DNA of 64,000 nucleotides, taken from assembly GCF_002854065.1 (NCBI RefSeq), contig NZ_CP024147.1. One strand, given 5' to 3'. The DNA comes from Escherichia coli (GTDB taxonomy: Bacteria > Pseudomonadota > Gammaproteobacteria > Enterobacterales > Enterobacteriaceae). This document shows, in pieces, positions 9,801 to 12,800 of this stretch. The stretch's first letter is position 1; every line of letters starts with the position of its first letter. Position numbers: made by a program.

Positions 9801-12800
9801 TACGAAACAGAGCCGAAGCGCGAGGGATAGAGAGCGCCAGTTCACCTAAAGGTTGGTCGCGATAAGCCATAGCTGATACCTCATTCTTAATAAGATAAGA
9901 TGTATTTTAAATGCATCTTTAAGGCAAATGCTATAACCCTTACGTAGCAGAGGCTTATTTAACTCACTGCCAGTATGTCAACTTTCTGAGACAGATTCAG
10001 TTAAAGGCTTTTCCGGTTTTGCTCTGACTGCAATGACCACGCCAACCACTAACAGCGCGATACCGCTCAGCGTCATCAGCGGCGGCATTTGCTGGCGTAT
10101 CAAAAAGGTGTACAGCAAACCTGCCAGTGTTTCGAAAACGATCAGCGGCCCGAGAATCACTGTCGGTAATCGCTGGCTGGCGACGTTCCAGCAGAGTGCG
10201 CCAACCCATGAGCAAAGCACGGCTATCGCAACCATCAGACTAATAAACACCAGCGGACGGGGGCCAAAAGGTAAGGAGAAGTCCGGCGTTTGTATATTCA
10301 GCCAGTAACAGGCGACGAGATAGCCGATGAGAGAAACCGGCAGCGTGACCAGCGCCTGCGCCGTCGCCCACATCATCGGATGTTTGTCGGGATTTTCCCG
10401 CAGCCAGCGGGCGTTGCGCAGGGCATACCATGCCCAGCAGACCACGGAAACTAACGCTAGCACGATGCCAGAGGTATAACGTGCCCAGTCAAAATCGGGG
10501 AGTCCGTGGTTTAACTCAGCAATATTCACACACGCCAGGCCGATGCCAATACAAATCAGTGCCGGGGCGAGTTTTCCCCACGCGAGTTTGCCGTCTCGCT
10601 GGCTATAAAGCAGATTGGCAAAGACAGGAATGACCACCGGCAGGGTGCCAATAATCATCGTAGAAACAGGCGCGCCAGTACGTTGAATGGCACTGGCAAG
10701 GCAGAAGTAATAGATGAGGTTGCCCATCATAGTGAGCATCAAGGCGGTAAGCCAGTCGCGACGCGCCAACTGACGCAGACGCACGCGTCCCAGCCAGGCA
10801 ATGGGTAGCGCAATTAACCCTAACGCCAGATAACGCCCCATCGACTGCAACATCGCCGGGTATTCCGGCACGATCAACGGCCCGACAAAAATAAGCCCCC
10901 ACATCAACCCTGCTAACAGGGCGTACAGCACGCCGCTAATCATTACTGGCATCCATTGGTCTGTCAGAAGAAACGTTCAGGAAGCAGACATGATTGCTCC
11001 CGGCATCCCGTCATTATCAGAGAGGATGCGGGAGGATGCCACTTTAATTAACTATTTATTAACATTAAAAAGATGGCTTACGCTTTCGGCTAACGTTGTC
11101 GTTGGGCGGCCAATCAATTTGCTCAGCGTTTTGCTGTCATCAAACAGACCGCCTTTCGATGCGCCAACGTCAGAATCCGCCAGCATATCCGCCAGTCCGT
11201 CAGGCAGGCCAACGCTTTTCAGCGCCGCAGCGAAATCGATTTCGCTCAGATTTTGATAGGTAACCTGTTTGCCGCTCTGTTTGGTCAGCTCTGCCGCTAA
11301 CTGTGTCAACGTCCAGGCACTATCGCCCGCCAGCTCGTAAACCTTGCCTTCGTGACCGGCTTCGCTAATCACGCGTGCCGCAGCTGCCGCATAATCTGCC
11401 CGCGTTGCCGAGGCAATTTTGCCATCGCCCGCGGCACCGATAAATACGCCGTGCTCCAGTGCTGCCGGGGCGCTGGCGAGATAGTTTTCGGTGTACCAGC
11501 CGTTGCGCAGCAGGGTGTAAACGATGCCAGAATCAGCCAACATTTTCTCCGTCTCGATGTGCTCATCGGCGAGGCCGAGCGGAGATTTATCCGCGTGAAG
11601 CAGACTGGTATAAGCGATAAATTTCACGCCAGCCGTCTTTGCGGCATTAATAACATTACGATGCTGCGGGGCACGTTGACCCACTTCGCTGGAAGAGATC
11701 AGCAGTAGTTTTTCCACTCCCTGAAGTGCAGATGTCAGTGCGGCTTCATCGCCGTAGTCAGCCTGACGCACGGTAATGCCTTGTGCTGCCAGGGCCTGGG
11801 CTTTTGCCGGATTACGAACGATAGCCACTATTTGTTGGCTGGCAGGAACCGTTTTCATCAAGGATTCAATAACATAGTGACCAAGTTGGCCAGTGGCACC
11901 AGTAATAGCGATCATGGGAAGTCTCCATCGTTTTGTCTTGTGTTTAAATACGCTAACACCTAAACTTACTTTTAGTAAGTACGTACAAAAAGGTAAGTAT
12001 GAAATGAGTCAGGTTAGCCTGTCGCAACAACTGAAAGAGGGTAATCTCTTTGCGGAACAGTGCCCGTCGCGCGAGGTGTTGAAACACGTCACCAGCCGTT
12101 GGGGGGTATTGATTCTGGTGGCGCTACGCGAAGGTACTCATCGCTTTAGCGACCTGCGGCGCAAAATCGGTGGGGTGAGTGAAAAGATGCTTGCGCAGTC
12201 GTTACAGGCGTTAGAACAGGATGGTTTTCTTAACCGTATCGCGTATCCGGTGGTGCCGCCGCATGTGGAATACAGCCTCACGCCGCTGGGCGAGCAGGTG
12301 AGCGAAAAGGTTGCTGCACTGGCGGACTGGATTGAGTTGAATTTGCCCGAGGTGTTGGCGGTGCGGGATGAACGTGCGGCATAACTGCCGGATGCGCTGA
12401 GCTTATCTGGTCTACGGTGCATGGCTTGTAGGGCGGATAAGATGCGCCAGCATCGCATCCGACAAAAGTGCCGGATGCGGTTGATGATTTATAGGTCGAA
12501 AAAGAAGTGTTTTACTTACTCAAATCCACCTGATAAATCGCAAACCCGATATCATCGGTCGCGACTTTATTCATCGGATATTGCCCTTTCTCTTTAATAA
12601 ACGCTGCGGCTTTATCTGACGGGGAAGTTTCGAAACGGATATCCAGTTTCTTATCGCCGGCTATCGGTGCTAAACGCCAGTTGTTATCTGCCGCCGGGTG
12701 AATTTCCCCCGCACGTTTCGACTCATCAGCAATCCACGCTGCCAGCACCGAGCGGTTCTCATCCGGTGAAGCAAAAGCGATATGGCTGTCGCCCGTACCG

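Follow-up and report, generated by a model that had tools for sequence, protein, structure and literature searches.

Several published studies describe the control of the Escherichia coli gene ytfE by NsrR. The same ytfE site that we describe below was predicted by comparative genomics in the study of Rodionov (2005, PMC1274295), which gives the NsrR consensus as gATGyAT-N5-ATrCATc and also points to genetic evidence that repression depends on the repeat. In strain CFT073, no 11-1-11 NsrR site ranks above that of ytfE, which has a PatSer ln P of -25.13; the ytfE ChIP-seq peak shows a fold enrichment of 9.65 and has its summit 50 nt upstream of the start codon, and ytfE expression goes up 69.6-fold with nitrate (Mehta 2015, PMC5320621). 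An earlier ChIP-chip study of K-12 had also found ytfE bound by NsrR (PMC5320621). Additionally, a fusion to the ytfE promoter has been used as an NO reporter, which is silent without NO and is switched on by an NO donor (PMC7336997). These ChIP, nitrate induction and NO-reporter data agree with an earlier note on this DNA, made from the sequence alone, which took ytfE to be a nitrosative-stress gene repressed by NsrR and placed an operator immediately upstream of it.

To describe this locus, we analysed a window of 64,000 nucleotides from the E. coli contig NZ_CP024147.1 (assembly GCF_002854065.1), and all positions given here are those of this window. The coding sequence of ytfE occupies 9208-9870 on the minus strand and encodes the 220-aa iron-sulfur cluster repair di-iron protein, as assigned from the open reading frame, the NCBIfam model NF008221 (416.7 bits, cut-off 254) and the annotation of the gene as ytfE in E. 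coli genomes. Its neighbours are cycA (7751-9163, plus strand) and the DMT transporter gene ytfF (9978-10952, minus strand). The Shine-Dalgarno sequence of ytfE, GAGG, lies at 9879-9882 on the minus strand, 8 nt before the ATG, and the GAGGTA found there is 84-98% conserved. The nsrR gene itself, which from the K-12 map is presumably located roughly 25 kb before ytfE, is expected outside this window. We also observed an antisense ORF of 222 aa (9181-9849, plus strand) that spans almost all of ytfE; we regard this as a mechanical ORF, unsupported by any evidence and probably an artefact of the codon bias of the opposite strand. The segment 9700-10100 matches several complete E. coli genomes at 100% identity, among them that of the type strain ATCC 11775, and this region was found in 5416 of the 5426 complete E. 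coli genomes searched. Among the approximately 5400 matches to the ytfE promoter region, three were on records classed as plasmids and not as chromosomes.

The intergenic region between ytfF and ytfE has 107 nt, and within it the plus strand reads AAGATGTATTTTAAATGCATCTT at 9897-9919. As the earlier note had claimed, this 23-mer is an 11-1-11 inverted repeat, with the plus-strand layout AAGATGTATTT-T-AAATGCATCTT. An inverted-repeat search recovered two arms of 11 nt (9897-9907 and 9909-9919) that are separated by a single nucleotide and are complementary at 10 of 11 positions (91%), and this palindrome was the sole inverted repeat within 9800-10050. The one non-complementary position is the T at 9903, where a C would make the repeat perfect. 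Since ytfE lies at 9208-9870 on the minus strand, the palindrome is upstream of the gene, and the 26 nt between its edge and the ytfE ATG make the wording "immediately upstream" a fair one. Read on the ytfE strand, the sequence is AAGATGCATTT-A-AAATACATCTT. The promoter-distal half-site AAGATGCATTT (9909-9919, minus strand) is a perfect match to the consensus half-site, and the same 11-mer stands in the ytfE entry of Table 2 in Mehta 2015 (PMC5320621). The promoter-proximal half-site AAATACATCTT (9897-9907, minus strand) is the reverse complement of AAGATGTATTT and carries the lone asymmetry, at 9903. When the whole window was searched with the consensus AAGATGCATTTNAAATGCATCTT, allowing up to 3 mismatches, a single match was returned, at the palindrome and with 1 mismatch, and none of 100 dinucleotide-preserving shuffles contained a match at this threshold. 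Chance is not the source of the palindrome at 9897-9919.

We then scored the palindrome with a symmetrised log-odds matrix of NsrR sites, generated from the 27 sites that Mehta et al. list in their Table 4, less ytfE and one duplicate, which leaves 25. A formal scan of this kind had been named beforehand as the test that could refute the NsrR assignment, and the palindrome passed it with 30.17 of a maximum of 31.16 bits. This is higher than the score of every site used for training, which range from 12.2 to 26.2 bits, and has a significance of P = 6.7e-13 per position (ln P = -28.0), so that about 3e-6 occurrences would be expected in 5 Mb. The perfect site of CFT073 scores 31.02 bits, the T at 9903 costing less than 1 bit. 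The NsrR operator is assigned to 9897-9919 on the minus strand on the basis of the repeat, the matrix score, the identity with K-12 and its presence at 80 of 80 orthologous loci, the last two of which are presented below.

The same scan returned three other matches: the next-best one at 54202-54224 (16.99 bits), in the intergenic region between argI(argF) and rraB, and two inside yjgN, at 55495-55517 (15.71 bits) and 55880-55902 (13.98 bits). All three are absent from the published NsrR site lists that we compared. At 14-17 bits, we rejected them as NsrR sites of note; the match at 54202-54224 probably overlaps an AT-rich operator of another kind.

Comparison with the published ytfE promoter, which the earlier note had proposed as a check, showed that the 23-mer of K-12 MG1655 is identical to 9897-9919 of the window. 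The 23-mer of CFT073 differs by 1 base, a C in place of the T at the equivalent of 9903, which results in a perfect palindrome. The start of the published site, at CFT073 coordinate 5,049,128, corresponds to position 9897 of the window. The palindrome at 9897-9919 is the already published NsrR operator of ytfE; it is real, functional and ordinary.

To examine the conservation of the operator, we scanned species-representative genomes once with YtfE, which gave 80 loci from about 25 genera of Enterobacteriaceae. The palindrome was present at 80 of 80 orthologous loci, scored 24.4-30.6 bits at each of them, and ended 24-27 nt from the ATG; the distance was exactly 26 nt in 64 of 81 sequences. 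The upstream regions compared were all distinct (81 of 81). Sixteen of the 23 palindrome columns are invariant in the 81 sequences and 19 are at least 90% conserved, and the mean column identity of the palindrome is 0.945. This value is on a level with the 0.963 of codon positions 1 and 2 and far above the 0.666 of 75 four-fold degenerate sites of ytfE; more distant parts of the upstream intergenic region have 0.53. On both arms alike, conservation of the outer positions, AAG.TG and CA..TT, is 100%, a symmetry expected for the site of a dimeric protein. In addition, the conservation runs 5 nt past the downstream edge of the palindrome (9892-9896, ATATT, 88-100%) but not past its upstream edge.

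This extension past the downstream edge, together with an invariant spacer base, suggests that promoter elements, either a -10 hexamer or a transcription start, are superimposed on the operator. We identified two candidate -10 hexamers, both on the minus strand. The first, TAAAAT, lies at the operator centre (9904-9909), and in the 81 sequences this hexamer reads TAAAAT in 55, TAATAT in 24 and TATAAT in 2. The spacer base at 9908 is an A on the ytfE strand in 81 of 81 sequences and would be the critical -11 A of this hexamer, from which a transcription start near 9896-9897 is predicted. The alternative candidate is TATCTT, at the downstream edge of the operator (9892-9897), and would be the weaker one in E. 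coli; most genera have TATATT here and Kosakonia has TATAAT, and at several loci the sequence is TATAAA, which is without the final T. A -10 hexamer seems to occupy the centre of the operator, and, judging from these motifs, the operator would overlap or abut the -10 region whichever candidate serves. Bodenmiller and Spiro, in 2006, reportedly placed the repeat over the -10 element of ytfE. An overlap of the palindrome with the ytfE promoter, as the earlier note had it, is plausible. A scan of 9700-10150 for sigma-70 promoter and terminator consensus sequences found nothing, and a manual search for a -35 hexamer gave no convincing one for either -10 candidate. In the literature searched for a mapped ytfE transcription start, including the Cappable-seq and SMRT-Cappable-seq supplements, Gilberthorpe 2007 and Tucker 2008, none was found.

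A site of this kind could also be conserved as a core promoter only, an AT-rich -10 region whose symmetry is incidental. In favour of this, TAAAAT at the site centre makes a good -10 hexamer, and the spacer is always A, a base that NsrR sites do not require at this position: the spacer base in the published sites is A in 11, C in 7, G in 5 and T in 4 (PMC5320621). However, a -10 hexamer cannot explain why AAG.TG and CA..TT at the outer positions are 100% conserved in a symmetric way, nor does it account for the near-perfect match to an NsrR matrix built from other genes, and the orthologous sites are occupied in ChIP experiments (PMC5320621). We therefore consider it very improbable that core promoter elements are all that is conserved here; the promoter and operator readings are compatible and do not exclude each other.

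Binding of the palindrome by a regulator other than NsrR, such as Fur, FNR, ArgR or IscR, was also considered. The palindrome is AT-rich, like many operators, and ytfE is derepressed in E. coli fnr and fur mutants (review PMC9268430); in Salmonella, mutation of fur raises ytfE 10-fold, and a putative Fur motif is listed for the gene (PMC3212961). However, the best consensus matches in the 107-nt intergenic region were 10/19 for Fur, 6/10 for FNR and 10/14 for NarL/P, against 21/22 for NsrR, and shuffled sequences did at least as well in 94% of cases for Fur, 100% for FNR and 65% for NarL/P. Matching of the CRP, ArgR and IscR type 1 consensus sequences to the same region gave no notable match. 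A recognised Fur or FNR site is absent at ytfE, and the effect of these two regulators is thought to be indirect (PMC9268430). There is accordingly only a very slight chance that the palindrome belongs to one of these regulators instead of NsrR.

Finally, the repeat might act in RNA, as a hairpin in the 5' leader of ytfE with an effect on stability, termination or translation. An 11-1-11 repeat that lies 26 nt ahead of the ATG, on the sense strand, could fold if transcribed, but this reading is hardly credible, given that the minus-strand segment 9866-9930 folds at -9.1 kcal/mol, whereas shuffles average -8.71 (z = -0.16, with 81 of 200 shuffles folding as well), that no Rfam match was found at E <= 1, that the 81 sequences show no compensatory substitutions, positions 7 (C74/T7) and 17 (A38/G43) varying independently, and that most of the repeat would be untranscribed if the -10 hexamer lies inside the site.

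With these alternatives weighed, the palindrome is almost certainly the operator through which NO-sensing NsrR represses the ytfE promoter. In the established mechanism, NsrR acts as an Rrf2-family homodimer with an iron-sulfur cluster, each subunit reading one 11-bp half-site AAGATGyATTT. The bound dimer would cover the core promoter, with the -10 hexamer at the site centre or at the downstream edge, and RNA polymerase would be blocked. On exposure to NO, the cluster is nitrosylated, NsrR leaves the DNA and ytfE is transcribed; its product, the di-iron protein YtfE, then repairs damaged iron-sulfur centres. For the binding in vivo, the derepression by NO and the mechanism at the cluster we draw on the literature, and for the sequence, the score, the identity of the site and its conservation on the present analysis.

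The polymorphic base at 9903 (plus strand) distinguishes two forms of the operator: the T of the window and K-12 gives the 10/11 repeat, and the C of CFT073 gives the perfect one. When the 5426 complete E. coli genomes were searched with exact 30-mers, 4175 had the T allele and 960 the C allele, a ratio of imperfect to perfect repeats of about 4:1; in about 280 others the locus is present but neither 30-mer matches exactly. Position 9903 is the degenerate Y/R position of the NsrR motif; of the 81 sequences, 38 have A and 43 have G there on the ytfE strand. The C/T difference could tune the affinity of NsrR, and hence the NO threshold, between E. coli lineages.

We also detected a second conserved block upstream of the operator, at 9930-9941 on the minus strand, which reads AAGGGTTATAGC on the ytfE strand and has the consensus AAAGGGkTATAkC. 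Across the 80 Enterobacteriaceae loci its mean identity is 0.84 and its position is fixed at 9-10 nt upstream of the palindrome. The block sits where a -35 hexamer would be expected; none is recognisable in it and no sigma-70 element matched. RNAalifold predicted no conserved RNA structure in the block, and a CCCC-GAAA-GGGG mini-hairpin was rejected, since its 81% pairing compares with 82% reached by shuffles and covariation gave no support. The reverse complement of the block, ATAACCCTT, agrees with the IscR type 2 consensus, as quoted in PMC11475020, over the first half of that motif. The full type 2 motif matches at 17/24, a level met at 55 of the 127,950 positions of the window, which corresponds to about a 4% chance in the region searched. 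A literature search for IscR regulation of ytfE found no link. We consider it unlikely that a second, undescribed input reaches the ytfE promoter through this block; if one did, apo-IscR or another factor could activate ytfE after NsrR leaves, and an iron-sulfur repair gene would be tied to iron-sulfur cluster status, as at sufA.

Taken together, the call made from the sequence alone was validated, and the operator itself brings no new biology. The ytfE site is a textbook high-affinity NsrR operator, and the ytfE promoter serves as an NO reporter in infection studies. Beyond the known operator, our analysis makes modest additions, namely the allele ratio at 9903, the centre apparently shared with a -10 hexamer and the unexplained block at 9930-9941.

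Among systems of other kinds, IscR is a paralogous Rrf2 regulator whose type 1 and type 2 sites are pseudo-palindromic operators of the same kind in promoters of iron-sulfur metabolism genes. The palindrome does not fit these IscR motifs: it reaches 14/25 on an approximate form of the type 1 consensus, and type 2 finds its best match at another place in the region. Only the block at 9930-9941 has a resemblance to a type 2 half-site. The crystal structure of Streptomyces coelicolor [4Fe-4S]-NsrR on hmpA1 likewise shows a 23-bp pseudo-palindrome bound by an Rrf2 dimer with a winged helix-turn-helix, in which the central 7 bp have no direct base contacts (PMC9338935). The hmpA1 operator, AACACGAATATCATCTACCAATT, differs in sequence from that of ytfE, and the Streptomyces protein differs from the E. 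coli one at DNA-contacting residues and has no significant affinity for E. coli sites (PMC9338935). Because the contact residues differ, the Streptomyces structure serves E. coli as an analogy only.

Within E. coli, the hmp, hcp, ygbA and yeaR operators have the same 11-1-11 architecture, AAGATGyATTT-N-AAATrCATCTT, in promoters of the NO-stress response. They are more degenerate than the ytfE site, at 12-26 bits against 30.2, and some of them are combined with FNR or NarL/P sites, none of which was found at ytfE. The closest system is the E. coli ytfE NsrR site itself (Bodenmiller and Spiro 2006; Partridge et al. 2009; Mehta et al. 2015), which has the same locus, the same position and, in K-12, the same 23-mer. 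Nothing of substance differs between the two: the window and K-12 carry the T allele at 9903, and CFT073 carries the perfect repeat.
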